Source of the DNA: Alphaproteobacteria bacterium
Lineage (GTDB): Bacteria; Pseudomonadota; Alphaproteobacteria; GCA-2731375
NCBI GenBank assembly: GCA_021776235.1
Contig: JAJFGG010000066.1
Location: 26,904-90,903, forward strand
Direction: 5' to 3'
DNA: 64,000 nt
Made by a program: the position numbers and the translations under genes. A model generated the notes under the pieces. It had not been told where the DNA came from. It was given only the letters and a program-made list of their open reading frames with translations, and made no database searches. Shown here piece by piece: positions 43,613 through 64,000 of this stretch (within the stretch, counting starts at the first letter, position 1; each line of letters opens with the position of its first letter).

Positions 43613-43700
43613 GGACCACGGCCGCGACGGCGGCCCGGCGCCCCTGCGCCGCCCTGGTGGAGCCGTGCGCCCTGGCGCACCGGCGTGAACGCCAAAAAGC
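43613..43700 (+). repeat. Intergenic ~75-bp repeat element, copy 2 (direct repeat of 41041-41115)
   Basis: Same core and same orientation as copy 1. Lies between the enoyl-CoA hydratase start and the mutM stop. Confidence 0.6.
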
Positions 43701-48084: not shown

Positions 48085-48431
48085 GCCGCGAGTATAGCCG
48101 CCCGCCGCCAGACCCGGCAATGCCACGCGGACGGCGGCCATCTATTGGGGCAGGCGTGCCGGCTTCGATTTGTATGCAACCACAGAGTCCGCTCCTCAGC
48201 TCTGCGTCGCACCAGCCCGCGCAGGATACGTCCGCCCGCCCGGCGCCATTTCGGGAACTCGTCCGCCGCGGCCAGCAGGATCTCGCTATCGCCTTCGTCG
48301 ATATCCGGGTGGTCCATGGTCACCCTGGATCGGTCCAGGCCCCAGATCGAGCTATGGCAGATTGTGGCAATGCCGATGCAGACGGGGTCAGGTGTCCGCC
48401 AATAGGCGCGCCTGGCGTGTGAACTATGCAA
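48054..48431 (-). pseudogene. Decayed paralogue of the prophage GH24 lysozyme (N-terminus replaced, ~150-bp internal deletion)
   Basis: Translation ...GIATICHSSIWGLDRSRVTMDHPDIDEGDSEILLAAADEFPKWRRAGGRILRGLVRRRAEERTLWL aligns with the endolysin at 51841-52284 (GYGSIWGLDRARLTMAHPDISEGDGEILLA...ADEFLRWRRAGGRILRGLVRRRAEERALWL). It lacks the catalytic N-terminal EGFSPVPYLD region and the central segment. DNA-level similarity is also visible. Confidence 0.7.
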
Positions 48432-48589
48432 TGACGCGGTTTTTTTCCACCATGCCTACGCCTCATTGACTCCCGGGCACTTAGGATTTTATCCTTTTTT
48501 GCTGATGTTCTTATATCGAACAGCGTATGCGATAATAGACGGGCTGGTTGTCAATCCCGGAAATATTGATCCAATTAAGGAGGGGTGCA

Positions 48590-49837
48590 ATGTTTAGAAA
48601 ATTCTTTCTGCGTCTAATCGAAATTGTAACGGCGATATTTATTGCCGCTTACATTGCCTTTGTGCCCACAGTCGTGATGAGTCAAGGTCTTCCGGAAGGG
48701 ATGATTTACTTCTATGCCTATGGCAACGCTTCTGGCGAGGACGCCTGCCCGAAAGGCGGCGAGGCATTGCCCGGCGGAAACTTGATCAAGGTTGGTAAGG
48801 AATCAGCAGATCCGGTCGGGACGCCGCTGGAAGACAAAACCGACCCGATGCACACACACGGAAAGCGGGTCCTCGTTTATCCCAATTTGGAACCCATGTC
48901 GATTTATTCGAGCACCTGTGACAAGGGCGGCTCGGAGGATAAATCGGGAAACTGCAATTTTTCGGGGGCCGCGCCCGGACCATTTACGGGGATAGGCTTT
49001 GTCGAATCCGCATCTTCGGGGCTTTCTTTTTTTCAAATCACGGCCTGTAAACAAACCGAAAAGCCAGCTTCTAAGTCCGGGCTAGATGTATTTCCAGTGG
49101 GTGCAGTCGTGTTCACCACTGGCGTTTCATTATGTAGTCAAATTGACCATTCCTGGAAATCTTTTAACAACGCCGGCAACGGTCTCTTCATAGTCACCCC
49201 AATGTCAGGGCAAAGCGTCGGTTTTTCAGCGGTAGTGGGGGAAAAGGGTGATACGAACCACGTCCATGTGCTCAAGGGAGAATTCGCGACCCCAACGGTT
49301 TATTTCGCCGCGGTCGCGGGGAAAGAGGGTGAAAAAGGTGGGCGATTGGCCGTGTCGAAAACCGACTACAAATATTACAATGATACCGACGCAGGGCCAG
49401 GCCTCCCATACTTGCAATATCCCTTATGCGAAAAACAGGAGAGCGAAAGACGCTATAGGTACAACATTCCGTCTGGGGTGGTCGTCTTCTCCAATACAGC
49501 CTGCACCGATGGCTGGTCCGAGGTGCGGGACAAGAATGGGGATCGACCGGATGGCCGCTTTATCGTCACTTTGCTTGGTGGCGGCGCAAACTTAACCGCG
49601 TTTGGAGCGCAACCTGGTATCGATAATACAACGATGGTGAGCCACAGACACGAAGGTACAGCACTTATCTCCCCACCTGCAGCGGGAGTGACCGTGAGAT
49701 CGACCGTGGCACCGGTAGATCCCAAAAACCCCGGAAACTATGCCGGGATTTTTTTGCATGCGCCGAAAGATATCGAGACAAATGAGTCAAAGGTAAACGC
49801 CCCGTACGTCCGGCTCCGGCTATGTCAAAAGAACTGA
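48590..49837 (+). CDS. Hypothetical membrane-anchored/secreted Gly- and Cys-containing protein (415 aa), lower-GC DNA
   Basis: ATG at 48590 with AAGGAGG RBS; N-terminal TM (LIEIVTAIFIAAYIAFVPTVV). No recognised domain. Codon usage visibly AT-richer than the backbone. Confidence 0.55.
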   Translation: MFRKFFLRLIEIVTAIFIAAYIAFVPTVVMSQGLPEGMIYFYAYGNASGEDACPKGGEALPGGNLIKVGKESADPVGTPLEDKTDPMHTHGKRVLVYPNLEPMSIYSSTCDKGGSEDKSGNCNFSGAAPGPFTGIGFVESASSGLSFFQITACKQTEKPASKSGLDVFPVGAVVFTTGVSLCSQIDHSWKSFNNAGNGLFIVTPMSGQSVGFSAVVGEKGDTNHVHVLKGEFATPTVYFAAVAGKEGEKGGRLAVSKTDYKYYNDTDAGPGLPYLQYPLCEKQESERRYRYNIPSGVVVFSNTACTDGWSEVRDKNGDRPDGRFIVTLLGGGANLTAFGAQPGIDNTTMVSHRHEGTALISPPAAGVTVRSTVAPVDPKNPGNYAGIFLHAPKDIETNESKVNAPYVRLRLCQKN

Positions 49838-49937
49838 CGCCCGTCGAGTATCCGTGGACAGCGTAAGATAAGGGGTTCCCGCCGCCGAATCCGCCAGGAA
49901 GTCGGGTTCGCGATCACCAGTTGATGGCCGGCCGGCT

Positions 49938-50174
49938 TTGAGGATCATCGCGCCGAAGGCAATTGTAGCAAACCCACCGACGGCTGACCTCGACATCTAC
50001 CGCACCGCCAAGCTGTTGATAGACCAATACGGCGAAGATGCAGCCTTTCACGCCGGCATGCGGGTGGATGAGATGTTGGACAGGGGCGACTTGGACGGCA
50101 GGGCGGTTTGGCGGCGGGTTCTTGCGGCTGTGGAGGAATTGCAGAGTGTGGGGGTTGAGGGGCCGGTGCATTAG
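49938..50174 (+). CDS. Small hypothetical protein (78 aa) of uncertain reality (non-ATG start)
   Basis: ...DIYRTAKLLIDQYGEDAAFHAGMRVDEMLDRGDLDGRAVWRRVLAAVEELQ reads like a coding sequence. The only upstream in-frame start is TTG. Confidence 0.35.
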   Translation: MRIIAPKAIVANPPTADLDIYRTAKLLIDQYGEDAAFHAGMRVDEMLDRGDLDGRAVWRRVLAAVEELQSVGVEGPVH

Positions 50175-50237
50175 TGAATCATGGTTTGAAATTCAACATT
50201 CAAGGCGCGGTTCCCGCGCGTTGCATACAATTCAAGC

Positions 50238-51047
50238 TCAAAAAAAGCCCCTGAAATGATCCACTACAAGAGCAGTATAGTCACATAAATGTTGGGATAT
50301 TTTGAGAACAGGTAGGGGCTCCTGATTTGATTCAACCGCTGCTACAGCTGCACCAGTCCAGTCACCTGAAGCTGCTTCAATGGCACAATTAGTCCGATAC
50401 TCTAGAAGAACGGCCTCTGGTTCTAGAGGCCCAGCCCATACAGTAACATCTGGCGGAACATTCGCTGATGCGTCCTCATCAGAGTAAAATTTTACTGATG
50501 TAGATAATGAAATTCTCTCAGGTGCGACGAGCACAACAGGTGGAATCTGATGTTTATCTGTATTGCTAAATTTCTGAAGTAAAACTAGCGGATCCTGTTC
50601 AGGACAACCCAACACATCAACCTTATTTCGATGATATGGCTGAATCCTCTCGATCATTTCAACCGCTTTCTCAGGAAGCTGATTTAGCCTTGTCCTATCA
50701 AGTTGAGTTTCTTTCTCACATATTGGAAAATGTATTGCCCGTGGGTTCGTCGGAGGGTCAAGCTGAGTTCGCGCCAAGGCAAAGGCCAAGTTATCTAGAC
50801 CACTACGTAAATTATGAACGATTTCTCCAAAACAAAGAGACCAGTCTTGGGGTGTTTCTGGCGAATCGTATCTGTCTAATATTAATTTATAACCCATTCG
50901 CTCATCACGCAATTCGCAACGAGCTTTGATTGGATGTAGTTCATTCCAATTAGAGACCGAGACAGTAAGTTCGGATAACAATTTTGCTGCCCGCTGGAGC
51001 TTAAGCTCTGCAGGTTCAAGAAATTTAAGATGATCACCCTCGTTCAT
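50238..51047 (-). CDS. Hypothetical protein (269 aa) encoded on low-GC DNA
   Basis: Clean ATG at 51047; no recognisable motif. DNA markedly AT-richer than the surroundings; sits between the island genes and the prophage lysis cassette. Confidence 0.5.
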   Translation of the reverse strand: MNEGDHLKFLEPAELKLQRAAKLLSELTVSVSNWNELHPIKARCELRDERMGYKLILDRYDSPETPQDWSLCFGEIVHNLRSGLDNLAFALARTQLDPPTNPRAIHFPICEKETQLDRTRLNQLPEKAVEMIERIQPYHRNKVDVLGCPEQDPLVLLQKFSNTDKHQIPPVVLVAPERISLSTSVKFYSDEDASANVPPDVTVWAGPLEPEAVLLEYRTNCAIEAASGDWTGAAVAAVESNQEPLPVLKISQHLCDYTALVVDHFRGFF

Positions 51048-51840
51048 TGCAACAGCACCATAAATTTTTTACGAGTATTAGTAACAATATTTTTCATAGA
51101 AATTCGCAGAACTAGGGTCAAGATGCGCCCAGAACAAACTGCGAATCCTACAAGAAATTGCACCCGTACGGAGCTGGAAAACCTGACCCACTCAGACGGA
51201 ATAAAAGCGAACAAAAAGAGGGGCCAGGCAAACCCTGACCCCCCGATCCGTTTTTGCTCTTCAGGCTAACAATTGAACGACCACATAGGCTATTGCCCAA
51301 GCGATCGCGGCCATGTTGACCCGAACAACGATCTGAACAGTCATGATATTTCACGACCCTTCTGATCCACGGCGCCGCGAACCATAAGGTTGCGGGAAAC
51401 GCGCCCTGATCAACGGATAAGCCGCCGTTACAGGGATGATCGGCCCGCCATCCATTTTGGCCAAACAAGATGACGATCCCCGCTAGTTCAGCGGCAGTGC
51501 GGACCCATAAAGGGCTGCCCGTATACTGCGGCAACGGGGCTGCGGTTATCCGGTTAGGGAACGATCCACGGAACTAACGTGGGAACCCGCCGGGCCGCGC
51601 ATTCTCTCATGATCCGCTGGTTAACGAATCACGGGGAAGGCAGAGTAACATAAAATCGATATTCGAACGAATCGATCGGCGCCCACCAAACTACACGTGC
51701 TAAAGGCGGAGCCCCCTGCCATCCTATTTTCCCGCCAGACGCCCAACCAGGCCGTCCAGGCCCTCGACAAGCGCAAGCCGCCCAGGGCAATGATCACTTT
51801 CGCCGCATCGGGCCCCCGCACTCTGCCGCCAAAGGGGAAA

Positions 51841-52284
51841 TCAACCCAGCCACAACGCCCGCTCCTCCGCCCGCCGCCGTACCAAGCCACGCAGGATACG
51901 CCCACCCGCCCGGCGCCACCTGAGGAACTCGTCCGCCGCACCGGCCATATCGCCGCGGTTGGCCTTCATGCGCAGGGTTGAAGACTGCAGGTTGCCGCTG
52001 CCCAAGTTGTAGGTAAACGACACCAGGGCGGAGAACTGGCCCCCTGACAACGGCACACGGATCAGCCGCCGCACGGCCCGTTCGGTATGTTGCAGCATCC
52101 GCGCCAGCAGGATCTCACCATCGCCTTCGCTGATATCCGGATGCGCCATGGTCAGCCGGGCCCGATCCAGGCCCCAGATCGAGCCATAGCCGATAGTGGG
52201 GATACCTATGGGGTCCAGGTACGGCACAGGCGAGAAGCCTTCGAAATGCTTGATGATCTCCAGGCCGGCGGCGTTGGTCTTCAT
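51841..52284 (-). CDS. Phage lysozyme (GH24 endolysin)
   Basis: EGFSPVPYLDPIGIPTIGYG motif (catalytic Glu and conserved fold of T4-type lysozymes); 4-bp overlap with the upstream holin-like gene. Confidence 0.8.
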   Translation of the reverse strand: MKTNAAGLEIIKHFEGFSPVPYLDPIGIPTIGYGSIWGLDRARLTMAHPDISEGDGEILLARMLQHTERAVRRLIRVPLSGGQFSALVSFTYNLGSGNLQSSTLRMKANRGDMAGAADEFLRWRRAGGRILRGLVRRRAEERALWLG

Positions 52285-52733
52285 TTCGGGTAGAACGTCT
52301 TCATGGCCCGGTGGCCAAACCAGAACGACAGGATGGCCGCAAACAGGGCCCGGGTTTCCTCGTCCCAGACCTGGGTCAGCGTTTCCAGGCTGACACCATC
52401 CGAGCCGAAGATCAGATACATAGCGGCGGATTTGATGAAAACGAACTCCAGCACCATGATGTAGGTCACCACCGGGCGCACGGATCCGCGCAGGGCATCG
52501 ACCCAGGCGATACCGGCCTTGCGGTCGTGGCGGTGCAGGCTTTCTGTCTCGCGGATATCGGCATCGATGTTGATTTCCTCCAGGCGCTGGGTATGGGCCT
52601 GGGTCTGCGCCTGCATCTGCAGATCCATCACTTTCAGTTCGTGCGCCTTGTCCTGGCGGTCCTGGAAATAATCCATCACCTTGGGCAGGAACGACGTGCC
52701 GAAGCCCAACAGGGAACCGAGTAGAGAGAGCAT
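52281..52733 (-). CDS. Putative holin (3 predicted TM segments)
   Basis: 150 aa with TM1 LSLLGSLLGFGTSF, TM2 VVTYIMVLEFVFIKSAAMYLIF, TM3 LFAAILSFWFGH. Immediately upstream of, and overlapping, the endolysin gene. Confidence 0.55.
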   Translation of the reverse strand: MLSLLGSLLGFGTSFLPKVMDYFQDRQDKAHELKVMDLQMQAQTQAHTQRLEEINIDADIRETESLHRHDRKAGIAWVDALRGSVRPVVTYIMVLEFVFIKSAAMYLIFGSDGVSLETLTQVWDEETRALFAAILSFWFGHRAMKTFYPK

Positions 52734-53081
52734 GCTGTTACCTCATGAAAAAAAGCCGCCTCGGTGGGCGGCTTGCGTTGGTTGCGGTGTATTCGTTAGA
52801 AAACTGCCGTTTAGGCGCTGCCGCGGCAGGAGTGGAATTATTCCAACGATACGGACCACCCCAGCAAAACCAATAAACGGAGGCGCGGGCGAAAACTCAC
52901 AACAGACTGCTGTGTCCAGAATGGACAATGGAACCGCTGTTGAGTAAAATTGGGCTTGATCTCTAAGCGTACATTCATAAAGCAATATGAAAGAGACTAT
53001 TTTGCATAGGAATTGTATCTCGAAAAGTACAAATATTTGGAAGCGTACAACTGAAGTAAGGTATTTCTTGGTATTTCGGAT

Positions 53082-53372
53082 ATGAATAGGTCAATAATTG
53101 AATATTTAGCACCGTGGGTTGGACATATTTTATTGTTCGTTTCAATTTCTCTTTTTTTATTGGCATTCGTATACCATTTCAGGCTTAGGTGGGCAATTGA
53201 AAATAGAATACACGGAAAATTTTTTACAAAACAATTTTATGTTAGGACAAGGCTTCTAAATCCTATCGAAAGAAGGTATAGACGTTTATCGAATTTGTTT
53301 GGTTTTATTTCTTTTATTATTTTTGCTTTCCATATTGAGTATTTAAAGAGACATAAAGAGTTGTCTTTTTGA
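53082..53372 (+). CDS. Small membrane protein (96 aa, 2 TM) in AT-rich moron
   Basis: ORF within the ~1-kb AT-rich segment (about 52.95-54.0 kb). Hydrophobic segments ILLFVSISLFLLAFVY and LFGFISFIIFAF. Confidence 0.4.
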   Translation: MNRSIIEYLAPWVGHILLFVSISLFLLAFVYHFRLRWAIENRIHGKFFTKQFYVRTRLLNPIERRYRRLSNLFGFISFIIFAFHIEYLKRHKELSF

Positions 53373-53473
53373 TCGTTAGAAATTCTCTGTCGCTCTGATC
53401 CCAATTGCCGCCGGAAGGATTGTCGCAAAATATCACCAAATTCGGGAACCGCGGCTACGCGGACGACCTACCT

Positions 53474-53989
53474 CTATCCAAAATGCAATAGCATCATAGA
53501 TAAAAAATTTGAATACCAAGCAAAAACGATGCCAGAAAAAGACACAAGCGCAGCAGGACCTTGCGTCTCTTTCAGTTGGCCAACAAGGTAAATGAAAGCA
53601 CCGATTTGGATCGCCATAACTGCAAGAAATATCCCGGCGCTTACAGACTGGGAGACTTGTCCCGAAAGAGAATTAGCTACCTCAAACAGCCCCAAACTCA
53701 ATAAAAGCGGCATCAACAACCACAAGAACCCGACTTGTCGCCGCCATATCCCGATAACCAGTCCTATGATCAGACAAATCGCCGCGGCAACCAGCAAAAT
53801 GAAGCTACCAAGATAGCTAAAAATGCCAATGAGCTCAAAAATAGCCAACAATTCCCCAACTTTGATTACAACACATAGCAACTTTGGCGCATTCGAATTA
53901 TTCCGGTTAGGAGGGCTGAGCCAATGCCATCGCTTCAGGCTATCGCCCAACCAGCCTGCACGCAACCTGGCGGCGACTATGCGGGACAA
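53474..53989 (-). CDS. Membrane protein (up to 171 aa, ~4 TM) in AT-rich moron
   Basis: Hydrophobic helices LLAIFELIGIFSYLGSFILLVAAAICLIIGLVIGIW, FLWLLMPLLLSLGLF, IFLAVMAIQIGAFIYLV, ALVSFSGIVFAWYSNFLSMMLL. Start uncertain. Confidence 0.45.
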   Translation of the reverse strand: MSRIVAARLRAGWLGDSLKRWHWLSPPNRNNSNAPKLLCVVIKVGELLAIFELIGIFSYLGSFILLVAAAICLIIGLVIGIWRRQVGFLWLLMPLLLSLGLFEVANSLSGQVSQSVSAGIFLAVMAIQIGAFIYLVGQLKETQGPAALVSFSGIVFAWYSNFLSMMLLHFG

Positions 53990-53999
53990 TACGGCTCCC

Positions 54000-54266
54000 T
54001 CAGGCGCCAGGCTTCAGCGCATCCCAGACCAAGGCCGCCACCAAAACCAACGTGCCGGTCAGGACGGTCAGCACCGCCTTGCGCCCGGCGGCATCGGCTA
54101 ACTTGCGCCAGCGCCTCGCATGCACCAGATCGGCGCGGAACTCGTTGACCTGGGCCTGGTCTTCAATATCCACACCAAGCAAGCGCCAGGTGTCCCGCAT
54201 GACGCTGTGGGCCGCGGCAACGCCCGCCTCCTGGGCAATGGCCTGGATTTCGTCCCGGTCTCTCAT
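54000..54266 (-). CDS. Small phage protein with C-terminal TM (88 aa)
   Basis: ORF with C-terminal hydrophobic helix VLTVLTGTLVLVAALVW, located between the tail-fiber-proximal genes and the moron. Confidence 0.4.
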   Translation of the reverse strand: MRDRDEIQAIAQEAGVAAAHSVMRDTWRLLGVDIEDQAQVNEFRADLVHARRWRKLADAAGRKAVLTVLTGTLVLVAALVWDALKPGA

Positions 54267-54568
54267 GTGGTGGGCCCCTCTGTTATCCGTTCAAGGTATT
54301 CCCAGGCCTGGCCGGCGGTGACCATGCAGGAGATGCCGTTGGGGTGAGTGACGATGATGGTCCAGGTGCCCTTGGCCGAGGTCAGGACCTCCAGCACCCG
54401 GCCGGTCGCCGTTACGCCCATGGCGCTGGGGGCCTCGCCGTGGCTGCGACCTAGATGGGCCAGGAATTTCCCGCGCTCGCCACAGACCGCGGCGGGGGAT
54501 ACCTGGGCCTGGGCTAGATTGGGCATAAAAAAAGCCGCCAGGGCGGCGGCCAGCAGGGGATATCGCAT
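54263..54568 (-). CDS. Small secreted phage protein (101 aa)
   Basis: Signal peptide MRYPLLAAALAAFFMPNLAQA followed by a ~80-aa Cys-containing domain; 4-bp overlap with the downstream ORF. Confidence 0.45.
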   Translation of the reverse strand: MRYPLLAAALAAFFMPNLAQAQVSPAAVCGERGKFLAHLGRSHGEAPSAMGVTATGRVLEVLTSAKGTWTIIVTHPNGISCMVTAGQAWEYLERITEGPTT

Positions 54569-54574
54569 TTCGTC

Positions 54575-55009
54575 CTACTCCGGCTTGGGGATGCGGGCCT
54601 TGATCGCCAGCACCTTGCCCAATAGATCGTCCATCTCCTGGATCAGCGGTGTGCCGTCCAGGCGCAACTGGTTGTACTGCTTCAGGATGACATCCAGGCA
54701 GTCACCGATCGCGTTCATCTGGCCCGGTTCCCGGCCCAGGGCGGCGGCGTAGGCGGCGGCGCGCCGTTGCCGGTAGCTGGGCTCGTTGGCCGCCTGCCGG
54801 GCCGCCTCCGCCGCCGCATACGCCGCCCTGGTCATGTATCCGGGCCCGGCGCTCGCGGCCCGATAGGCCGCTGCATGGCGGCCGATCTTGGCCGCCAGGG
54901 CGGCTTCCGGATCGCCCCTGAAGCTGGCCTGGCAATGGCGCCACCAGGCGGCCGGGTCCACAACCGCATGGGCCAGGACCGCCGTTTCGTTTTGGCTCAA
55001 TTCCCGCAT
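54575..55009 (-). CDS. Hypothetical phage protein (144 aa) downstream of the tail fiber gene
   Basis: Ala/Arg-rich protein with no recognised motif. Its position after the tail fiber gene might suggest an assembly-chaperone role, but that is unsupported. Confidence 0.4.
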   Translation of the reverse strand: MRELSQNETAVLAHAVVDPAAWWRHCQASFRGDPEAALAAKIGRHAAAYRAASAGPGYMTRAAYAAAEAARQAANEPSYRQRRAAAYAAALGREPGQMNAIGDCLDVILKQYNQLRLDGTPLIQEMDDLLGKVLAIKARIPKPE

Positions 55010-55021
55010 CTTGTCTGCCTC

Positions 55022-56101
55022 CTATGCCGCCAGCAGCAAGCCGCCGAACTGGCTTGACGTGGTCGCCGGTAAATCAACGATGGCCGTGCCGCCGTTTATG
55101 CTCAAATTGACCTTCGCAGTATCGGCGGCGTCCATGTAGGTGATGGCGGTGACTTCCAGTTCCAGGCGCTCGTCACCCGTGTTGGTTTCCCGTATGGCAC
55201 CGGGGTTGACCTGGCGGTTGTAGTTATAGCTCGGTGTCTGGATGCCCATCACCAGCGCGGTATGGGCACCGGCAACATCCACCATGTAAAGTTTTGTCCA
55301 GAGCAGGTAAAAGCCCGGCACCGGCGCCGTGAAGCTGGTGCCGTCGAAATTGCCGCCCTGGTCTTTTATGGTCGTGCCGAATGTCACGTCGGCCGAGCCG
55401 CCGGCGCCAAAGGTATTGTCCTGGGCCACTGATTTATGGGCCATGAAGGCCGGCTGGCCCGGCACCGACAGGCGCCCGGCGCCGTCAACGCTCAATTGCT
55501 CCTGGTTGGCAATGCCCAGGGTAGCGAGTGCGGCTGTTATGGTGGCATCGCCCAGCAGGGTCTGCATCAGGGTCGTGGGTACGATGCCGGCCACGATGGC
55601 CGCCGCCGCATAGGTGGCCAGGGCCGTGCCGGCGGCGTCAAAGCCGATCAGTTGCCCAGCCGCCGGCGTCACCTCCAGCCCGGTCAGCGAGGAGCTGACC
55701 GGCACCCGCAGCGAGCGCGCGTCCACCTCGTCCAGCTGCTGGTCGATCATCCGGGATTTGTCGATCATGCTTTCCAGGGTGTCGGTGTTCAGGGCCCCGG
55801 CGGTGGGCAGGTCGTCCGGCTGGCTCAGGGGCACGGCCCGTTTCAGGGTCACGGTCAGGGCAGGGGCGCCGCTGCCCCGGGGCGCCGTGCTATAGCTCAC
55901 ATTGCCGCCCGAATCCGAACCGACGCCCGAGACGGCAAAGCCCGAGGTAATCTCCGTATCGCCCTCGAAGACCTGCAAATGCGAGGCATCCAATATCTTG
56001 AAGGTATAGGGAAACACAGTCTGCAGTTCCGCCGCCGCATAGCGGTCAACGGCGGCCGATGCCGATAGGGTCATGGCCTCTCCTTTCCATTGTCGTGCCA
56101 A
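55022..56101 (-). CDS. Tail fiber protein (T7 gp17-like N-terminal tail-attachment domain)
   Basis: N-terminus ...LQTVFPYTFKILDASHLQVFEGDTEITSGF... resembles the conserved N-terminal domain of T7-type tail fibers. C-terminal Gly/Thr-rich region. Confidence 0.55.
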   Translation of the reverse strand: MARQWKGEAMTLSASAAVDRYAAAELQTVFPYTFKILDASHLQVFEGDTEITSGFAVSGVGSDSGGNVSYSTAPRGSGAPALTVTLKRAVPLSQPDDLPTAGALNTDTLESMIDKSRMIDQQLDEVDARSLRVPVSSSLTGLEVTPAAGQLIGFDAAGTALATYAAAAIVAGIVPTTLMQTLLGDATITAALATLGIANQEQLSVDGAGRLSVPGQPAFMAHKSVAQDNTFGAGGSADVTFGTTIKDQGGNFDGTSFTAPVPGFYLLWTKLYMVDVAGAHTALVMGIQTPSYNYNRQVNPGAIRETNTGDERLELEVTAITYMDAADTAKVNLSINGGTAIVDLPATTSSQFGGLLLAA

Positions 56102-56185
56102 GCCATGCTGGAAGGGCCCAATCGAAAGGACCCCGGAGCACCGTCAGCAACTCTCGCGCATTGCGCCACCGGATGGCCGGGGTGA

Positions 56186-57508
56186 TCACTCATCTTTGCC
56201 GTCTTCCGGTGGCTGGTCTTCTTTGCCGTCTGCCTCGTCTTGCTTTTGCTTTAGCTCGTTCAAACGATCCTGCAATGCATTCATGGCATCGCGGCAGACC
56301 TCCCGGACATCGCGGGCGTATTCCTCCCTGTCGTCGCCCTTCTTCAATTTTCGCACGGCTGCCACGAAGTCTTTCCCGGTATTGCGGATCAGCCGCGCCA
56401 GACTGAAACGTTCCCATGCTTTCCAATCGCCACGCAGGTTTCTGGCGGCCGAGTTGATATGGGCGGCGAAGTCAACACCGTTGTATCTGCCGCCAAGGGA
56501 AGTATCGGGACGGCTGGAGTTTAACCGCGGATTTTGAGCGTCCGGGCCTGGCTTATACAGTTCCGGCATCTTTATCTCGCCTTTGCCATTGAGAGTCGCG
56601 CCGCCGATGTGGTTGACCAGGTCGATCAGGTCCGGGAACTCGGTGTTGAGAACATCAAGGCATTGCTGAATGATGATATCGTTGCCTTCCTGGGTCCATT
56701 TGTTGCCGCGGCTATGCAGCGGTTTCGTCCAGATTTTGATCAGGTCGTCGGCCACCAATTGGTATGGTTGGTGGCTGTCTGCGTCCGCCTTGCCTGCCGC
56801 GCCCGGAACAGCTTTTCCGGGCGGGATCGGCGGCCTTGCCGCCGCGCGGCCTCTCTTCGGCTTGCCGCTTCCCAGGTTTCCGCGCAGAAGCTGGGTCGCC
56901 ACTGTTGTGCCGACAAACAGAGTTAGCAAAATCCACGCCTTTTCGGCGCTAATGGCGCCCGCTGCGAGAAGGACCGGCACAAAAGCCAGTTTTCTGTATT
57001 CAGGCGGCGGGCCGTCGGGATCGGTGGGGTCTCCATCAAGGCGAACGGCCAGCACCTGGGCAACTTGTCTGGCCTCGGCGATCTCCTCTTCAGTGCGCTC
57101 CGAACCGATCCCCTCGAACAGTGCGCCGGATCTGGCAAACGCTTCGTAGTATTGCGCCGCCATCCCGCGCTGTTTGCCGTCGCCGCCCGCCTCGCCTGGT
57201 TGCATGGCATTGGCCACGTCCGGCACCGCCGTATTCTCGTCGGTTGACGGTGCGGGTTCCTCGGCGCCTGGCCCCAGGCTTGGCAAGCCACCTTCGTCCG
57301 GCCGTACTGGGTCTTCCGGCATCTCGAGCGGCGCCGCCTCGTTAGGCGTTGCCTCGGCGGACCGCTCCCGCAGCTCCAGGCCTTCGGCTTCCGCGTCCGC
57401 GAAACTGATCCGGACGCTGTTGCCGTCCGTACCGATGACCGGGCCGGACCCATCGACCAGCATCAGGCCGCGTTCGTCCGGCGTGTTGCGCCATTCGAGA
57501 GTGTTCAT
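56186..57508 (-). CDS. Hypothetical virion-associated protein with central TM segment and C-terminal domain of unknown function (440 aa)
   Basis: Start set at the ATG at 57508 (MNTLEWRN..., AGGAG RBS 7 nt upstream). Acidic/Pro-rich N-terminal half, TM helix (LAFVPVLLAAGAISAEKAWILLTLFVGTTVATQLL). C-terminal ~200 aa has no recognised motif and a charged tail. Confidence 0.55.
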   Translation of the reverse strand: MNTLEWRNTPDERGLMLVDGSGPVIGTDGNSVRISFADAEAEGLELRERSAEATPNEAAPLEMPEDPVRPDEGGLPSLGPGAEEPAPSTDENTAVPDVANAMQPGEAGGDGKQRGMAAQYYEAFARSGALFEGIGSERTEEEIAEARQVAQVLAVRLDGDPTDPDGPPPEYRKLAFVPVLLAAGAISAEKAWILLTLFVGTTVATQLLRGNLGSGKPKRGRAAARPPIPPGKAVPGAAGKADADSHQPYQLVADDLIKIWTKPLHSRGNKWTQEGNDIIIQQCLDVLNTEFPDLIDLVNHIGGATLNGKGEIKMPELYKPGPDAQNPRLNSSRPDTSLGGRYNGVDFAAHINSAARNLRGDWKAWERFSLARLIRNTGKDFVAAVRKLKKGDDREEYARDVREVCRDAMNALQDRLNELKQKQDEADGKEDQPPEDGKDE

Positions 57509-57846
57509 AGGCATGCTCCTGCCGCGCCACGCCGGCGGCATGGGCCTGGAAAGTTGCTTCGTTTTTGGCTATATTTTGGTCAGGGACTGGCGGCGTTTTG
57601 GACGTACGGCGAAGGCCCGGGAAATCGGGCATTAACCCCACCGGTCCCACCCTGATTCTTCTTCTTCCAGAGTTCCAGAAGATTTCTCGCTTCTGTTTTG
57701 GCCGTCGGAGCAGGACGCTACAATCTAAGGTCGTGCACCTGGGAAATTTTTTTGCATTGGTATAAGGTGCAATTGGGAAGTGGGATGCGGTGGTTCGCCT
57801 TCTGGCGACAAAAACTGGAAACGGTTCTCTGCAGCCTGCTTCCTAC

Positions 57847-60579
57847 TTAATTCTTGTCCATTTTTTGTCTTTTCCACATAGTGCGGAAAGTCAGCCGGCC
57901 CTTCTTCGTGCTGACGGCCTCGACTATATAGAGTGTACCGTCCGGCAAATTTTTCTTGAAGAGAAGGCGCAGAGGCTGACGTTTCGTCATTTCCTGCAAT
58001 TCAACGTCGTCAAATGTTTTGGCAATGGCGGGTACTAAGCCAAAGTCACTGAAACCGAGCGCTACGTGGTTCGCCTGTTTCTCTGAAGGCCCGTGGGATT
58101 TGTAGGCATGCAATCCATTGTTGGCAGAGATTTCCTGATGGTAACCTGAAAAATCTCTGCCGGTTTTCTGGCGTATGCGCTCTGCCGTATCCGCGTCCAA
58201 GTCCGGTAAATGCAACACCGTCCCGCCTTTTATCCCGGTCTTGAGTTCGCCGCGAACTGCCATTTCGATGAACATCGACGCCGCATCGCCCGCTGTCACA
58301 TCGGCGCCAAAGTCCTCCGCGTACATTTCGACATTGGTTTTTGGGTTGTTCTCTAGCTGTAGCAGAATGCGTGCCTTTGCCCGGTCCATCCGTATGGATC
58401 GGTCGGCCTTGCCAAAGATTCGCGGCAGATACCGTCTTCCCAGCTGCCATGCCCGCATGATGAGAAGTCCGTAGCCGGCATTGGTAACTTCCATGCCTTC
58501 CGGCAGATCTATGATGTCGTTGAGGGCAACAGGGCTTTTGATCAGGAAGGCACCTGCGCCCGGTTCCCCTTCTGGCAGGCCGTTCTCGGAGCCCGGCGAA
58601 TTTTCCGCCGTGCCGGTCGCCGCGTCGCTCACCGTCTGACCGGCCCGGCCGTTGCTTTCCAGGATCGGCCCACGCGCCTTGCCCTCCGCTGCCGGCTCGG
58701 CGCCTGCGCCGCGCGTCTGGTGGGCGGCCAGGACGGCGGCGGCATGGGCCTGGATGCGGCCCAGGTCATAGCTCTTGGGTACACGGTAGGTGGTGGAAAA
58801 GTTGAAATGGTCGTTGACGATCTTGTCGGTCGCCAGCCTGGCCGCGGCCTCCGGCGAACGCCCTCTTGCCACGAGATCCAGGGCGAATAGATAGATGCCG
58901 TCCCGGGTCTGTTCGGCGATGGCCCTGTCCCTGTTCCCGTCCCCGGCGGCGGACGCGGTGCGGAAAAAGCCGGCCAATTGTTCGTCAATTGCCCCCTTGA
59001 CGGCTTCGGCCTGGGCCTCGGACAAACCCTTTTCCAGCGCCCGCGGGCCGGCGGCTTCCGCCGCTATGATTCGGTTCAGGGCCGGCGCCATCTCCGGTTT
59101 ATGGGCCAATGCGGCGACGATAGGCGCGGAAGGGCTATGGCTGAAGGCCAGAAAATCCCGCATGGCCACCGCGCGGTGAGCGCCGCTTGGAGCCAGCAGC
59201 CTGGCCATGAAGTCTGCTTTATCGCCCGCCTGGTCATAGTCCCCTGCCGCCTGCGCCGCCTCCTGGTTGGAGAAATAGCGGTAGAGGAAATCAGGCCCGC
59301 CAATGACCTGTTGCAGGGCGATGTTTCTGGCCCGCGAGGGCTCCGGCGTCTTCAGGGCCGGGCCGCCCGCCGCGAAACCCGCCGGATCCCGGGTGAATTG
59401 CCTCTGGCGGTCCTGTAACGCCTTGACGGCAGCCAGATACAGTTTCTGCTTCACCGTGAAGCTCTCGGCGTCGGGCTCCGGCCGTCTGGCCTGCACTAGA
59501 TGCCAGGCCTGTTCGCCGGGTGTGAAACGGATCTCCGTCATGGTGGCGAAATAGCTCAGCGCCTGGGCGGCCCTCTCGTCGTAATCCCCCAAGGCCGCTG
59601 CATCGCCCAGATCGACGATCCGTTGCCGCAGGCCCGCTACGCCCTGGCCGCTGGTCTCGCGGCGGGCCAGATCCTCGGCGATCAGTCCCGCCACCTCGCG
59701 GCCCTCCACGGCGCGCTGGGTTTTCAGGGCGCCCGAGATGGCGGCGGCGGCGGCGGCCTTCTCCAAGCCGTTGGCCAGCAGGTGATCGTAGCCGCCATTA
59801 TCCATAACGGCCCGGGCGTCCGCCGGGTCGGCCTGGGCATCCCTGGCGATTGTTCCCTGGGCCCAGACCCGCAGGGCCGCAATGCGGCTTTGCGCGTTGC
59901 TGATAGTGCCCAGGCGCTGCTGCTCGGCGAAATCGCCGTTGGCCTCGGCAATCATGGCCGCTTGCGCCGGGCCGCGAAGGGCCGCGATGCGCTTCTGCCG
60001 GTCCCCTGTGCGTATATCCAGTTGCTGCCGCGACCAGCTGGTTTCCCGTACCGCCTGGTTGGTTCGTACCTGACGCGCCCCGGCCCGTTCCACGTTACCG
60101 GCATGAGTGCTGGCCAGCCGTTTGGCGTCCGGGTTAGAAATCTTGCCGAACAGCTTATCCCGGCCCTCGGCGAACTTCTCGGTATAGCGGGATGGATAGT
60201 CGCTGCCGTCAGGGGCGCCCTGGCCGGCGTAGGCTTCGGCCCCGGTCCGGATCCTGTCCAGTTCGACCTTGGCGTTCTGGAACTCGGTTTCGGCTAATTC
60301 CTGGTTGCGCCGTATCCTGGCCTGGATGGCGATTTCCGTCAGATCCCTGCCGGCCCCGGAGATCACCCGGCCCAGGTTCGCGTCCGCCTGCCCCTTGGCC
60401 ACCAGGGCCGCCGTTTGCCGGCGCATGGCGGCGTTCTCACGGGCGAACGAACGGTCCAGGGCGGCGCCCTCCGCCTGTGCGCCCTGCAACGCCCCCGTGC
60501 TGCCGTCTGGCCCGCCACCGTCAAAGGCAGGGCCGGCGGGGTTCAGACCCCGCTGGCTGAAGATACGGTCAATGCGCAT
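57847..60579 (-). CDS. Large internal virion protein (gp15/gp16-like, ~910 aa) with a C-terminal domain encoded on lower-GC DNA
   Basis: Position and size match T7-like internal core proteins. Start at the ATG at 60579 (MRIDRIFSQRG...). The last ~230 aa (...HAYKSHGPSEKQANHVALGFSDFG...LPDGTLYIVEAVSTKKGRLTFRTMWKRQ) are encoded by visibly AT-richer DNA. Confidence 0.6.
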   Translation of the reverse strand: MRIDRIFSQRGLNPAGPAFDGGGPDGSTGALQGAQAEGAALDRSFARENAAMRRQTAALVAKGQADANLGRVISGAGRDLTEIAIQARIRRNQELAETEFQNAKVELDRIRTGAEAYAGQGAPDGSDYPSRYTEKFAEGRDKLFGKISNPDAKRLASTHAGNVERAGARQVRTNQAVRETSWSRQQLDIRTGDRQKRIAALRGPAQAAMIAEANGDFAEQQRLGTISNAQSRIAALRVWAQGTIARDAQADPADARAVMDNGGYDHLLANGLEKAAAAAAISGALKTQRAVEGREVAGLIAEDLARRETSGQGVAGLRQRIVDLGDAAALGDYDERAAQALSYFATMTEIRFTPGEQAWHLVQARRPEPDAESFTVKQKLYLAAVKALQDRQRQFTRDPAGFAAGGPALKTPEPSRARNIALQQVIGGPDFLYRYFSNQEAAQAAGDYDQAGDKADFMARLLAPSGAHRAVAMRDFLAFSHSPSAPIVAALAHKPEMAPALNRIIAAEAAGPRALEKGLSEAQAEAVKGAIDEQLAGFFRTASAAGDGNRDRAIAEQTRDGIYLFALDLVARGRSPEAAARLATDKIVNDHFNFSTTYRVPKSYDLGRIQAHAAAVLAAHQTRGAGAEPAAEGKARGPILESNGRAGQTVSDAATGTAENSPGSENGLPEGEPGAGAFLIKSPVALNDIIDLPEGMEVTNAGYGLLIMRAWQLGRRYLPRIFGKADRSIRMDRAKARILLQLENNPKTNVEMYAEDFGADVTAGDAASMFIEMAVRGELKTGIKGGTVLHLPDLDADTAERIRQKTGRDFSGYHQEISANNGLHAYKSHGPSEKQANHVALGFSDFGLVPAIAKTFDDVELQEMTKRQPLRLLFKKNLPDGTLYIVEAVSTKKGRLTFRTMWKRQKMDKN

Positions 60580-61289
60580 TAGAGAACCCTCGCATATGAT
60601 GAAACGCCCCGGCCGAAGTCCGCCAGTCCGCCGATCAGCGCCCCCCTCCCGCGCGCCTCCGCCCCGGCCGCGTTGCTCAACGAGGTAGCGGCGTTGCTCC
60701 ACCCGGTGCGGCGCAGGCTGTCTGCGTCGATCCGGCCAACCCGGCGCCGCGAGGCGGCCCGCGCCTCGTACAGCTCCCGCTCCCGCTGGCCCTGCAGGGT
60801 GAACAGGTCCGCCTGGCCCCGCTGCCGCGCCGCCCGGCTTTCCGTGTTCAGGCGGATGATGTCCAGGTCCTTGTCCAGCTCCCCGAAGCCTTCCGCGATC
60901 AGCAGGTTCGGCGTGGTGTCGTCGATCATCCGGCCCTGGGCGGCAAAGCCCGTGACCATGGAGGAAACCCGCGCCTCGCCTATGCGCCGGGTCTGGGACA
61001 GGGCAACCAGGCCGGCCTGTTCCTCGGCCACCGCGTTCTGCAGCGACAGGGCCGCGTTGGCCTGGGCGATTTCCTGATTTGACAGGCCAAGGCGCTCCAG
61101 CAGGGCCGCCTCGATCGCCGCCAGTTCCTCCGCCGCCCGGGCCTGTTCCTCGGCTGCTTGCAGCGAGAACGAGGCCTGGCTTTCAAAGGCTTCCGCCTGA
61201 TCGTCCGCCGCCCGGGCTGAACTGACCGCGCCGACGACCGAGGCGCCCAGGCCGATAATGGCGCCGATACTGCCCAGACCAAAAGCCAT
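60579..61289 (-). CDS. Internal virion protein (gp13/gp14-like), 236 aa
   Basis: N-terminal hydrophobic Gly-rich segment then Ala/Glu-rich coiled region. Located between the gp12-like and large core-protein genes. Confidence 0.45.
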   Translation of the reverse strand: MAFGLGSIGAIIGLGASVVGAVSSARAADDQAEAFESQASFSLQAAEEQARAAEELAAIEAALLERLGLSNQEIAQANAALSLQNAVAEEQAGLVALSQTRRIGEARVSSMVTGFAAQGRMIDDTTPNLLIAEGFGELDKDLDIIRLNTESRAARQRGQADLFTLQGQRERELYEARAASRRRVGRIDADSLRRTGWSNAATSLSNAAGAEARGRGALIGGLADFGRGVSSYARVL

Positions 61290-63274
61290 CAGTCATTCAC
61301 CTCTTCACGCATGAGCAAAGCCAGCACCGTGGCCGGCAGGGGTTGGTTGGCGGTGATGGTAACCCGTCCCAGACGGTCCCAGCCCGACGGCGGTTTGATG
61401 GCGATGGGCCCGGTGTAAAGCGGTATGGCCGCCCCGACCTGATCCTCCACCTCGCGGAAGATCACGTCGTCGCCCGTTGCCCCGGCCTTGGCCGAGGCCG
61501 TCAGCCCGCCTGTATCTTTCAGTTGCAGGATCAGTTTGCCGATGGCCTTCTTGCGACCTTGGCTGGCCCCGTCCCGGGCTCCTGTGGCCAGATCGTTGGT
61601 CACCAGGGTGGCGCTATAGGCCAGGCCGATCTCGACCGCCTCCGCCCCTGCGTCCAGGCTTATGGCGCCGCCCGAAACCACTTTGCTGCCCACAGGCGCG
61701 CCATCGGCCCGGATGGTCACCGTCTCGCCTTCCAGATGGTTCAGGCCGGCCCAGACCGTCTTTGCGGGGCTGGCGGCGCCCACCACGGCGCTATCCACAT
61801 AGACATTGTCCGGGCTCGGCGTCGGGTCGATCACCTCGATATAGCGGCGGGTGCCGCCGTTTATGGTGCGTTTGACCACCAGCCAGACCTCGTCGCCGTT
61901 GTCACCGGGGATCACCGCCACGCTTTCCACCTTGGCGTCCGTGCCGGCGATGATGTGCCGGGCCCAGCCGATCACCGCCTGCTGGGGGTAATAGGTGCAG
62001 GACAGCAAAGCGCCGTCCTCCGTGGCGGCCCACAGGGTGCGGTCGGGCTGTTCCTGCCAGGCCACCTCCCGGACGCCGCCCGACAGCAGATGTTCCGAGA
62101 TCACGGAAATCTCGTCCGGTGAATACTCGTCCGTCTCCACATTGAAACCCAGGCTGTCCAGTTGCCGGCCGTCGTTGCTGGGCTTGCCATAGCGCTTGGA
62201 GAACACCACCGTGTCATCCACATCCACGGGCGCCCGATAGGCGCAACCGGCCGAGGCGACCCGTTTCAGGGGAAAATTCGTCGGCGTGATTTCGTCCGCG
62301 TTGACCCGCCAGACCGCCCCGGCGGTGCCAAAGAACAAACCCTTGGAACCCAGCAGCCAGCGCCCCACGTTGGTCCGGGGCGAGGCTACCGTGGCATCGA
62401 ACGGATCGTCGGCGTTGGCGCCCGCCAGCAGGTCGAGGAAGTCGCCGGCCCGGGACAGCCAGATCTTTTGCGGGTTGTTGTTCGACGCCGCCCAGGCCAG
62501 GCGCTGCTGGATGAAGGTCACCGCGCCTGGGTAATCATCCGTGCCGGTAAAGGCCGGCGCCGGGTCCTTGCCCGCCGTGACCGCGTATGTGGTCAGGGCC
62601 CAGGCGGTGTGCCCGGTGCGGGTCAGCTGCTTTGGCGGCTGGCTGGGGTGCGCCAGATACATGATGTCGTTGGATTGCGCGAACATCACTTCCCACAAAA
62701 CGGCTTCGGCCCAGGGCGGCGTGGTGATCTGGTAGACCCGGTAGACCGCCCCGCCCGAGGCATACGCCCCGTGTGTGCTGCCGTCCTCGCCCGACAGCTC
62801 GAACGTGTTGGCGGTCTGATTGGCCACCGTAAAGCGGCGCCCGTTGATCTGGGTCATTCCGGCCACGGCGGATATGACCACATGGGTGCCGTTCGGGTAA
62901 CCATGGCCGGCGGCGGTAATGACCACCGGGTTGTTCTGGCTCGCGCCCGTGATGCTCTTGGCGGTTTCGACCACCCGCCCCTGATCCCTGTAATAACGCA
63001 TGTAGCCGGTGCTGCCGTCGTGCCCCAGTTCGGCCACGTAGGCCTGCTCAACGCCGAAGATAAAGGGGATCAGCCGGGGCGGGTGGGCGCTGTCCTTGAC
63101 CTCGCCGATGAACCGCGTGCCGGCTCGCCGGGTCACCCCGCCATGGGGCATGACCTGCCAGTTGGTCAGGGTCCGGCAGCCCTGAAAATACTGTTTCAGG
63201 TCCGTCCGGCCATACAGCTTGGGCGAGACCTCGCCGGTGGTGAACTGGGTTTGCGCCGGCCACGAGCGCGCCAT
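61289..63274 (-). CDS. Tail tubular protein B (T7 gp12-like nozzle protein)
   Basis: 661 aa. N-terminus ...FTTGEVSPKLYGRTDLKQYFQGCRTLTNWQV... matches the pattern of T7 gp12 (GGISQQPDILRYPDQGSRQVNGWSSE). Position is immediately after the gp11-like gene. Confidence 0.6.
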   Translation of the reverse strand: MARSWPAQTQFTTGEVSPKLYGRTDLKQYFQGCRTLTNWQVMPHGGVTRRAGTRFIGEVKDSAHPPRLIPFIFGVEQAYVAELGHDGSTGYMRYYRDQGRVVETAKSITGASQNNPVVITAAGHGYPNGTHVVISAVAGMTQINGRRFTVANQTANTFELSGEDGSTHGAYASGGAVYRVYQITTPPWAEAVLWEVMFAQSNDIMYLAHPSQPPKQLTRTGHTAWALTTYAVTAGKDPAPAFTGTDDYPGAVTFIQQRLAWAASNNNPQKIWLSRAGDFLDLLAGANADDPFDATVASPRTNVGRWLLGSKGLFFGTAGAVWRVNADEITPTNFPLKRVASAGCAYRAPVDVDDTVVFSKRYGKPSNDGRQLDSLGFNVETDEYSPDEISVISEHLLSGGVREVAWQEQPDRTLWAATEDGALLSCTYYPQQAVIGWARHIIAGTDAKVESVAVIPGDNGDEVWLVVKRTINGGTRRYIEVIDPTPSPDNVYVDSAVVGAASPAKTVWAGLNHLEGETVTIRADGAPVGSKVVSGGAISLDAGAEAVEIGLAYSATLVTNDLATGARDGASQGRKKAIGKLILQLKDTGGLTASAKAGATGDDVIFREVEDQVGAAIPLYTGPIAIKPPSGWDRLGRVTITANQPLPATVLALLMREEVND

Positions 63275-63849
63275 CAGGACAGATGCTCCAGGACGAAGGG
63301 CGAGATGGGCAGCCCATCCTGCACGTCCTCGGCGCCGTCCACATTGCGGGCCTGGCGCAGGATGGCCGCGAAGTCCCGGCCTTTTTGATCCGCTTCGGTT
63401 TTCGAACCGGTCAGGGGCTTGGCCAGTTTCCAGGCCAGGTAATGGGCCAGGGCCTGCACGAAGCCGGCGTCGAACTGGGTGACATCGATAATGCGCCCGA
63501 TATAGACCAGATCCACCGTGCTCTCATGGCTCAGCAGATCCCGCCCTTCCACCTTCCAGTCCGGCGGCTCGGATGGATCGTTGGCCGAAATCACCCGCAG
63601 GCAATAAGGGTCCGTGGGCAGTTTGAAGGAATTATCATAGCCAAAGGCCGGCGCCGTGGCGTTGCGGGCCAGGCTGGCCCGCCGGGTGGCGAAGTTCCAC
63701 GGATGCAGGCGCAGCACGAAATCCCGGGCGTCGTCATAGTGGATGTTGCAATAGCGCCCCTGTTCCGTGCTTTCGGTCAGCGAGGTAATGCGCTGTTCCT
63801 CCAGCACCGCCAGGGCAATGTTGCAGATTTCAACGTCCGATGCGGCCAT
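63274..63849 (-). CDS. Tail tubular protein A (T7 gp11-like gatekeeper protein)
   Basis: 191 aa (T7 gp11 is 196 aa). EICNIALAVLEEQRITSLTEST and LRLHPWNF segments resemble T7 gp11 (VNDILASIGEPPVSTLE / IQSRGWTFNIEE). Confidence 0.6.
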   Translation of the reverse strand: MAASDVEICNIALAVLEEQRITSLTESTEQGRYCNIHYDDARDFVLRLHPWNFATRRASLARNATAPAFGYDNSFKLPTDPYCLRVISANDPSEPPDWKVEGRDLLSHESTVDLVYIGRIIDVTQFDAGFVQALAHYLAWKLAKPLTGSKTEADQKGRDFAAILRQARNVDGAEDVQDGLPISPFVLEHLS

Positions 63850-63888
63850 GGTGGCTCCTTTCAGTCGCCAGTTGTTAGATGTCAGGTT

Positions 63889-63929
63889 TCAGATGTCAGA
63901 AAAGAGCGTCGCCCCGATCTGACATCTGA
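63889..63929 (-). terminator. 12-bp perfect hairpin (tcagatgtcaga / tctgacatctga) between capsid gene end and gp11-like gene; Tphi-like position
   Basis: In T7 the major late terminator Tphi lies exactly between gene 10 (capsid) and gene 11. This hairpin occupies the same position; no U-run follows on the transcript strand. Confidence 0.4.
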
Positions 63930-63950
63930 CCTCTGATCCCTGACCTCTGG

Positions 63951-64000
63951 CTAATCGACCACGTAGACGAAATAGCCCTTGATGGTCGCCCCTGCGGGGA
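63951..64000 (-). CDS. Major capsid protein, C-terminal end only (5' part outside window)
   Basis: Minus-strand frame ends ...PAGATIKGYFVYVVD* with the stop at 63953-63951. Position before the gp11-like gene matches T7 gene 10. Confidence 0.4.
   Translation of the reverse strand, partial: PAGATIKGYFVYVVD

Follow-up and report, generated by a model that had tools for sequence, protein, structure and literature searches.

A putatively grounded, prophage-derived HTVC010P-like gene cluster at a conserved chromosomal locus of an alphaproteobacterium

The 64,000-nucleotide (nt) stretch of contig JAJFGG010000066.1 analysed here (the window) ends in a block of co-oriented open reading frames (ORFs) that fills the minus strand of positions 51841-64000 in the ORF list. 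This block consists of late phage genes arranged in the order 162-amino acid (aa) ORF end, stem-loop, adaptor, nozzle, three internal/ejection proteins, fibre, small genes, holin and GH24 endolysin. All of its ORFs are intact, including those of 661, 910 and 451 aa, in which no frameshift was found. An initial annotation of the DNA had described a phage late module in a chromosome, with gp11-like and gp12-like genes, internal proteins, fibre, small proteins, holin and endolysin on the minus strand, and this order is borne out by the profile matches. The features of the block are as follows.

63951-63998, minus strand: last 15 codons and stop of an ORF that runs off the window edge (ending in PAGATIKGYFVYVVD), homologous to a protein of ~162 aa
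63877-63948 (core 63889-63929), minus strand: strong stem-loop between head and tail genes; -36.6 kcal/mol, z = -5.3
63274-63849, minus strand: adaptor, or tail tubular protein A (gp11 position), 191 aa; phrog_394, E 3.5e-51
61289-63274, minus strand: nozzle, or tail tubular protein B (gp12-like), 661 aa; phrog_376, E 5.1e-162
60579-61289, minus strand: internal virion protein (gp14 position), 236 aa; phrog_418 'internal virion protein', E 2.6e-07
57847-60579, minus strand: large internal/ejection protein, 910 aa; C-terminal PBECR3 nuclease domain, PF18812, E 1.9e-12
56186-57541, minus strand: third internal/ejection-position protein, 451 aa; placed by position only
55022-56074, minus strand: tail fibre; N-terminal tail-anchoring domain and variable C-terminal tip
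54000-55009, minus strand: three small conserved genes of 144 aa, 101 aa (signal peptide) and 88 aa
52743-53989, minus strand: low-GC insertion within the cluster (GC 0.31-0.51); a 171-aa multi-pass membrane protein and three ORFs of 63-80 aa
52281-52733, minus strand: holin-like protein, 150 aa, three transmembrane segments; phrog_6637, E 1.3e-31
51841-52284, minus strand: GH24 endolysin, 147 aa, last gene of the block; PF00959, E 4.5e-39

The closest solved structures for the nozzle, the adaptor and the N-terminus of the fibre belong to the podovirus tail of PDB entry 8ck1, a likeness at the sequence level. The adaptor profile matched the 8ck1 'Connector Protein' (E 7e-33), and the nozzle profile, built from eight sequences, matched the 8ck1 nozzle (E 1.8e-157) and also reached T7 gp12 (PDB 6r21, E 0.002) and other nozzle proteins; a weak match of the nozzle to phrog_457 was detected as well. 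The N-terminus of the fibre matched the 8ck1/28lx fibre (E 5e-12), and its residues 10-135 matched 13 PHROG fibre/tail families, many of them podovirus fibres or tailspikes; a C1q-like match of the C-terminal tip fell below the threshold (E 0.09). T7 gp11 itself was not reached in the adaptor profile search, and T7 gp17 was not among the matches of the fibre N-terminal domain. Of the T7 homologies named in the initial annotation (gp11, gp12 and gp17), a gp11/gp12-type adaptor and nozzle are supported; the fibre N-terminus matched the fibre of 8ck1. The nozzle contains an E1_FCCH-like beta domain at residues ~100-185 (PF16190, E 2.7e-10 in Pfam). This insert (~75 aa, window 62720-62975) is present in the 661-aa nozzles of the window and of three homologous loci (L002, L004 and L005 among the loci described below), and is missing from the 588-aa nozzles of L015, L020 and L022.

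The 236-aa protein shows 72-88% identity to its homologues in relatives, and the 910- and 451-aa proteins occupy the gp15/gp16 positions. For the 910-aa protein, the ATG at 60579 is better placed as the start than the mechanically assigned GTG at 60702; in the Pfam search, the PF18812 match spans residues 840-947 of the 951-aa version of the ORF. PBECR3 is a nuclease domain of the barnase/EndoU/colicin E5/RelE-like type, and here it forms the C-terminus (window 57847-58200) of a protein in an ejection position. The domain is also found in the homologues of L015 and L026, and in L015 the following gene carries an LPD3 'polyvalent protein' domain, a combination that suggests that the 910-aa protein may be an injected effector. 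The 451-aa protein had no PHROG, Pfam or PADLOC match; its homologues in L004 and L002 are 80 and 53% identical, respectively. Among the small genes, the 101-aa ORF belongs to phrog_25396 and the 88-aa ORF to phrog_6420; homologues of the 144- and 101-aa ORFs were found in relatives, and size-matched ORFs lie at equal positions in L026 and L029. Homologues of the holin (55-62% identity) carry PF11351 (GTA_holin_3TM), a family named for the release of gene transfer agents (GTAs), and the window holin aligns to it over its full length, below the threshold (E 0.2). The endolysin has the motif E-x8-D-x5-T, and the PF00959 match bears out its earlier assignment to GH24.

The ORF at the window edge aligns with the C-terminus of a 162-aa ORF located between the major capsid and adaptor genes in L002 and L004, and window position 64000 aligns to position 9170 of L004, within the L004 ORF at 8731-9219. 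The edge codons had been taken for the C-terminus of the capsid protein, a reading refuted by this alignment; the end of the capsid gene would be expected several hundred bases past the window edge. The 162-aa protein itself is head-associated by position and a candidate for capsid cement or decoration. The stem-loop that follows has no U-run. A stem-loop or terminator is present at the equivalent position in seven relatives, four of which (L002, L003, L005 and L022) have a canonical GC stem with a T-run, and the window stem-loop is probably a transcription attenuator or an RNA-processing site. Its folding energy, z-score and positional counterparts uphold the hairpin originally noted before the gp11-like gene.

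To view the whole cluster, we used homologous loci drawn from GTDB genomes, IMG/VR and public assemblies (numbered L002 and so on), as the head and packaging half of the window's own copy lies beyond its end. The window is colinear with L004, L002, L005, L015 and L020, and L004 is 89% identical in nucleotide sequence to window 64000-58261. By tblastn synteny, the gene order of L020 is TerS, TerL, 218 aa, 109 aa, DUF2927 (opposite strand), acyltransferase, 217 aa, portal (PF12236), Bbp19-like, scaffold, capsid, 162 aa, tube A, tube B, 238 aa, 694 aa and fibre. L004 opens with an ORF that corresponds to the C-terminal part of the same TerL (83% identity), and an NCBI portal sequence (P0189), 94% identical to that of L004, may belong to the missing half of the window's own copy. 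In close relatives, the complete unit runs from TerS to the endolysin over ~20-25 kb, with a variable segment after TerL. Both the capsid (PF19821) and the portal, for which a search beyond the window had been advised, are thus present in relatives. The absence of a terminase from the window was also confirmed, including the region after the endolysin, and is explained by the position of TerS and TerL upstream of the portal in relatives. No relatives were found in a portal-alignment scan of metagenome contigs, and no close relatives were found on plasmids. The opposite-strand DUF2927 lipoprotein gene beside the acyltransferase (L004 2702-3418, L006 80-733, L020 8128-8865, L022 3379-4098) shows 36-48% identity among relatives and is much more divergent than the virion genes.

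In the Pfam and PHROG searches, no integrase, repressor, replication protein, RNA polymerase or DNA polymerase was detected in any relative's gene list, and the only recombinase-type domains were those of insertion sequence (IS) transposases in L029. In L015, L018 and L020, the 10 kb preceding the portal contain no gene of the size of an RNA or DNA polymerase; the longest products encoded there have 331, 660 and 626 aa, respectively, the last being the host RecQ, and none has an RNA polymerase domain. In L015, TerS and TerL are replaced by a 9-kb block of 14 small co-oriented genes of unassigned function upstream of the portal region. Of the ORFs of this block that were scanned, 0 of 12 had a PHROG match; the block also contains an internal duplication, visible as two 95-aa ORFs (701-988 and 4889-5176) with ~89% nucleotide identity. 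The more distant L037, a 39.9-kb viral contig whose TerL is 50% identical, carries early-type genes, namely ArdC-like and PAPS-reductase-like genes on the opposite strand upstream of the terminase, and this early region shows what the close relatives of the cluster are missing.

On the other side, the block is followed, beyond an intervening segment, by a conserved host flank, the ubiE-ccmF region; its description as a phage module in a chromosome is supported. The features between the block and this flank are as follows.

48431-51840: low-GC spacer of 3.4 kb (GC 0.44-0.52) between the intact endolysin gene and an endolysin remnant
48177-48400, minus strand: decayed second endolysin copy, a direct repeat with the intact gene; 5' end lost and an internal deletion of ~160 nt
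47017-48141, minus strand: pentapeptide-repeat gene directly after the endolysin remnant; PF00805
35546-45412: host flank with ubiE, fpg, enoyl-CoA hydratase, DUF7508, acyl-CoA dehydrogenase, response regulator and ccmI/H/G/F, identified by tblastx

The phage block ends exactly at the endolysin stop codon, where the similarity between the window and L002 stops, and host-type genes follow the endolysin in L002. In L026, only 35 nt separate the endolysin from ubiE, and the genes that come next are fpg, enoyl-CoA hydratase, DUF7508, acyl-CoA dehydrogenase, response regulator and ccmIHGF; this flank is colinear with window 45412-35546 at 83-95% amino acid identity (tblastx). The endolysins of L029 and L030 have the same ubiE-side neighbours. 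At the left side of L020, RidA, PALP and canonical RecQ genes are located directly upstream of TerS, and in both L020 and a JGI contig (3300072015) recQ is ~0.4-0.5 kb from TerS; in L018, a radical-SAM gene adjoins TerS. The JGI contig contains RidA, PALP, RecQ, TerS, three small ORFs, holin, endolysin, pentapeptide gene, ubiE and fpg through ccmF, and is a deleted remnant at the same recQ-ubiE locus. L029 is a second remnant, in which IS elements and metabolic genes are followed by three small ORFs, holin, endolysin and ubiE. The ubiE flank is common to four genomes and the recQ flank to two. The holin-endolysin pair is kept beside ubiE in genomes without the virion genes (L029 10001-10893, L030 9509-10401 and JGI 3300072015).

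The endolysin remnant is ~80% identical to the intact copy and, by blastn, 74-84% identical to four endolysin alleles; being about equally far from all of them, it gives no indication of which copy is native. It holds the place occupied in the JGI contig by the intact endolysin, next to the pentapeptide gene, which suggests a past duplication, a replacement or a second arrival/insertion. The 3.4-kb spacer contains ORFs of 269 aa (50238-51047, minus strand) and 429 aa (48548-49837, plus strand, with an N-terminal hydrophobic stretch) and a strong terminator-like hairpin (51244-51218), and it was aligned by none of the fetched loci. The low-GC insertion at 52743-53989 has no counterpart in the gene lists of L002, L026 and L029, where the small genes run straight to the holin; a 171-aa gene is located at the position of the insertion in Logan contig L025 (run SRR15505512), which has an identical holin. 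The ORFs of both low-GC segments had no Pfam, PHROG or PADLOC match. No tRNA, other RNA family or att-like repeat was found at the endolysin end of the cluster, the sole repeat there being the endolysin remnant.

The window also contains a repeat resembling repetitive extragenic palindromic sequences (~80-105 nt), which comprises several GC-rich hairpins with a consensus around CACGCCGGTGCGCC...GGCGCAC...GGCGCCGGGCCGC...GCGGCC. Copies lie between host genes in the window (41045-41149, 43618-43697 and 4989-5061) and after the capsid gene in L004 (8524-8691, two tandem copies), L005 (4419-4524) and L006 (5754-5859), with another further downstream in an intergenic region of the L004 cluster (16479-16557).

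We next consider the selection that has acted on the cluster. The ratio of nonsynonymous to synonymous divergence (dN/dS), estimated by the Nei-Gojobori method from tblastn-derived codon alignments, is 0.13-0.18 for the adaptor and 0.12-0.17 for the nozzle in comparisons with closer relatives, 0.20-0.33 for the 236-aa protein, 0.11-0.38 for the fibre, 0.09-0.22 for the holin and 0.10-0.16 for the endolysin. Values for the 910-aa protein (0.35-0.46, long alignments) and the 451-aa protein (0.49-0.58, full-length alignments with the L004 and L002 homologues) are higher. The dS of these comparisons ranges from 0.17 to ~1.9, and for the adaptor, nozzle, holin and endolysin values from 0.25 to 1.9. 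Three genomes provide data for both host and element genes, and their pairwise dS values are as follows.

Window versus L029: flanking host genes 0.48-0.68; lysis genes 0.56-1.10
L026 versus L029: flanking host genes 0.67-0.86 (ccmI 1.49); lysis genes 1.17-1.28
Window versus L026: flanking host genes 0.75-1.11 (ccmI 1.49); lysis genes 1.18-1.94

In these three genomes, the dS of the lysis genes ranks the pairs as that of the host genes does, at one to two times the host values. The GC content at third codon positions is also similar (0.71-0.86 in cluster genes and 0.73-0.82 in adjacent host genes). Low dN/dS at host-like dS indicates that the cluster genes have retained their function through a divergence similar in extent to that of the host genomes. 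Even in L029, in which the virion genes are gone, the holin and endolysin are under purifying selection (dN/dS ~0.1-0.2).

The relationship of the cluster to known phages was analysed using the nozzle and capsid sequences. In a tblastn search against 50,697 phage records, the nozzle matched 234 records, all at <60% identity. The best matches were HTVC010P-type pelagiphages (36-39%; HTVC010P, 39%), followed by cyanophages, Xanthomonas CP2-like phages, VP2-like vibriophages and Liberibacter phages. The L004 capsid, a PF19821 protein, is 50-54% identical to HTVC010P-type capsids, and no Autographiviridae record was present among the top matches listed for the nozzle and capsid. The gene order of HTVC010P (TerL, portal, scaffold, capsid, small ORF, tube A, tube B, internal proteins, fibres and endolysin) corresponds to that of the cluster. 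The group is defined by seven core genes (PMC8477408), of which tube A and tube B have homologues in the window and the capsid, scaffold and portal in close relatives; no nuclease was found, and the relatives' TerL had no tblastn match to HTVC010P at 1e-4. The closest TerL homologues of the HTVC010P-type group have been located in a Rhodospirillaceae genome, and members of its subgroup II are temperate, carrying an integrase and integrating into host genomes (PMC8477408). HTVC010P-type pelagiphages, including HTVC028P and the integrated SAR11 prophage PNP1, thus resemble the cluster in late gene order and are its closest sequences, and both modules hold an acetyltransferase. However, the identity is only 36-54%, and the host of the cluster is a Rhodospirillaceae-like alphaproteobacterium with ~60% GC. 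In addition, the relatives of the cluster lack the early region of HTVC010P-type phages, which spans ~10-15 kb and comprises nuclease and DNA-metabolism genes and, in some phages, genes for an integrase and Xre-like regulator. The lysis gene of most members is reported to encode a peptidase M15 (PMC8477408) rather than the GH24 lysin found here, which is accompanied by a PF11351-family holin. On this sequence evidence, the lineage is HTVC010P-like; the tail is T7-style in architecture, and the genome type is not that of the Autographiviridae.

Our favoured reading, held with slightly more confidence than doubt, is that positions 51841-64000 represent the distal half of a prophage-derived HTVC010P-like cluster that would be grounded at one locus, vertically kept and possibly GTA-like; for the head and packaging genes, this reading draws on the relatives. 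The initial annotation had read the block as the late module of a T7-like (Autographiviridae-type) prophage. The adaptor, nozzle, internal proteins and fibre do follow the T7 order, with three internal proteins between nozzle and fibre and a stem-loop between head and tail genes before the adaptor gene; the adaptor-and-nozzle tail is of T7 style, the nozzle is distantly homologous to gp12, and the relatives' portal is of the T7-gp8 type. However, T7 has its terminase genes at the right-hand end of the genome, behind fibre and holin, and this order is contradicted by the relatives, in which TerS and TerL precede the portal. T7 also possesses an RNA polymerase and a DNA polymerase/primase module, neither of which is found in the relatives of the cluster, and it differs in capsid family, in having an amidase instead of a GH24 lysozyme and in lacking the additional 162-aa gene between capsid and adaptor. 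Together with the HTVC010P-type best matches, these differences make this reading very improbable, and the Autographiviridae label is not supported. Temperate T7-like phages are already known, and an integrated phage of this type, even if present, would not be new. The remnant option offered at the same time comes closest to the truth, although the relatives do have a capsid/portal module, which speaks against a fragment devoid of head genes. The single-subunit RNA polymerase, integrase and att sites that the initial annotation had advised searching for were not encountered, the first two in the relatives' gene lists and the last, as an att-like repeat, at the right end of the window. A capsid-forming phage-inducible chromosomal island or other satellite was also considered and ruled out; the cluster encodes its own tail and has no integrase or replication module.

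Two other explanations were weighed. An intact temperate HTVC010P-like prophage would have its integrase, repressor and replication module outside the window, either upstream of the terminase genes or past them, and would excise and replicate normally. It would be in line with the integrating subgroup II phages (PMC8477408), with the intact window ORFs and with an upstream half that, for this copy, is out of view. However, such a prophage is unlikely: TerS neighbours the host recQ in both L020 and the JGI contig, integrase searches covering 4-8 kb on the left of the cluster and 10 kb on its right in L020, L026 and the JGI contig were negative, the window has that same locus on its right side, and the endolysin end shows no tRNA or att-like repeat. 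A functionless cryptic prophage, with ORFs intact merely for want of time to decay, may be considered improbable as well. It would account for the two genomes that retain at this locus only TerS and the lysis genes, or only the small genes and the lysis genes, for the two low-GC insertions and decayed endolysin copy of the window and for the lack of TerS and TerL in L015. Neutral decay, on the other hand, would give a dN/dS near 1 and broken frames, whereas the adaptor, nozzle, fibre, holin and endolysin show values of 0.1-0.3 over a dS of 0.25-1.0 and the 661-, 910- and 451-aa ORFs are unbroken. Several points nevertheless weigh against a grounded, vertically kept cluster. L002 has another right flank and L018 and L015 have other left contexts, which could mean mobility, as an intact prophage would predict; the 14-gene block of L015 might be an early region; and integrases were looked for with Pfam and PHROG profiles only. 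No single retrieved contig has the intact cluster with both flanks, and the window itself ends inside the 162-aa ORF, so that its own capsid, portal, terminase and left junction are beyond view. Furthermore, the deleted remnants in other genomes show that the cluster is dispensable, and the endolysin remnant of the window, which may reflect a second arrival or a replacement event, does not fit simple vertical descent.

According to the grounded-cluster reading, an ancestral temperate phage would have lost its early and lysogeny half and become fixed in the interval from recQ to ubiE. Those genes for packaging, virion and lysis that remain may still be functional, because they are intact and under purifying selection across substantial synonymous divergence. 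If expressed, they would be predicted to produce T=7-type short-tailed particles, followed by cell lysis by the holin and lysozyme. Without the means to excise or replicate by itself, the cluster would have to begin any packaging in situ, and the packaged DNA would be cut from the chromosome in a manner resembling a GTA or lateral transduction.

Such a cluster would share several features with RcGTA-type GTAs. In the relatives, it is a chromosomal cluster that opens with terminase genes and contains only packaging and virion genes, without integrase or replication functions. It occupies a syntenic locus in several related genomes, is under purifying selection, is incomplete in some genomes and has a PF11351-family holin. 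The restriction to virion and packaging genes was seen in L020, L018 and the JGI contig, so that the genomic features of GTAs are found in relatives only, and only in part. The RcGTA tail is of the siphovirus type. The architecture of the present cluster is by contrast of the podovirus type (adaptor and nozzle), its lysis genes lie inside the cluster, and, unlike a GTA, the cluster (~20-25 kb) would fit within a capsid of the HTVC010P size class (genomes of ~35 kb). No CtrA box or shared motif was found upstream of TerS in L020 and L018, a result that is uninformative on GTA-type regulation. We propose only tentatively, as a possibility with a smaller share of our confidence, that the unit from TerS to endolysin may be a domesticated podovirus-derived GTA, or a device for lateral transduction, in a Rhodospirillaceae-like clade. 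Seated permanently between recQ and ubiE, it would make short-tailed particles that are filled in situ with chromosomal DNA, and it would have arisen independently of the genetically characterised GTAs. If this is true, the retention of lysis genes under selection in the absence of virion genes would point to a host-level role of the lysis cassette.

A seemingly complete HTVC010P-like packaging, virion and lysis cluster, from an abundant podovirus lineage, that lacks genes for autonomy, is present at one locus in several related alphaproteobacteria and remains under purifying selection is the genomic signature from which GTAs are thought to arise. To our knowledge, no genetically characterised GTA has a podovirus-type tail. 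If particles are made, the cluster would represent a second, independent alphaproteobacterial case of phage domestication; if they are not, it would provide a well-dated example of stepwise prophage decay in which the lysis cassette has been selectively retained.

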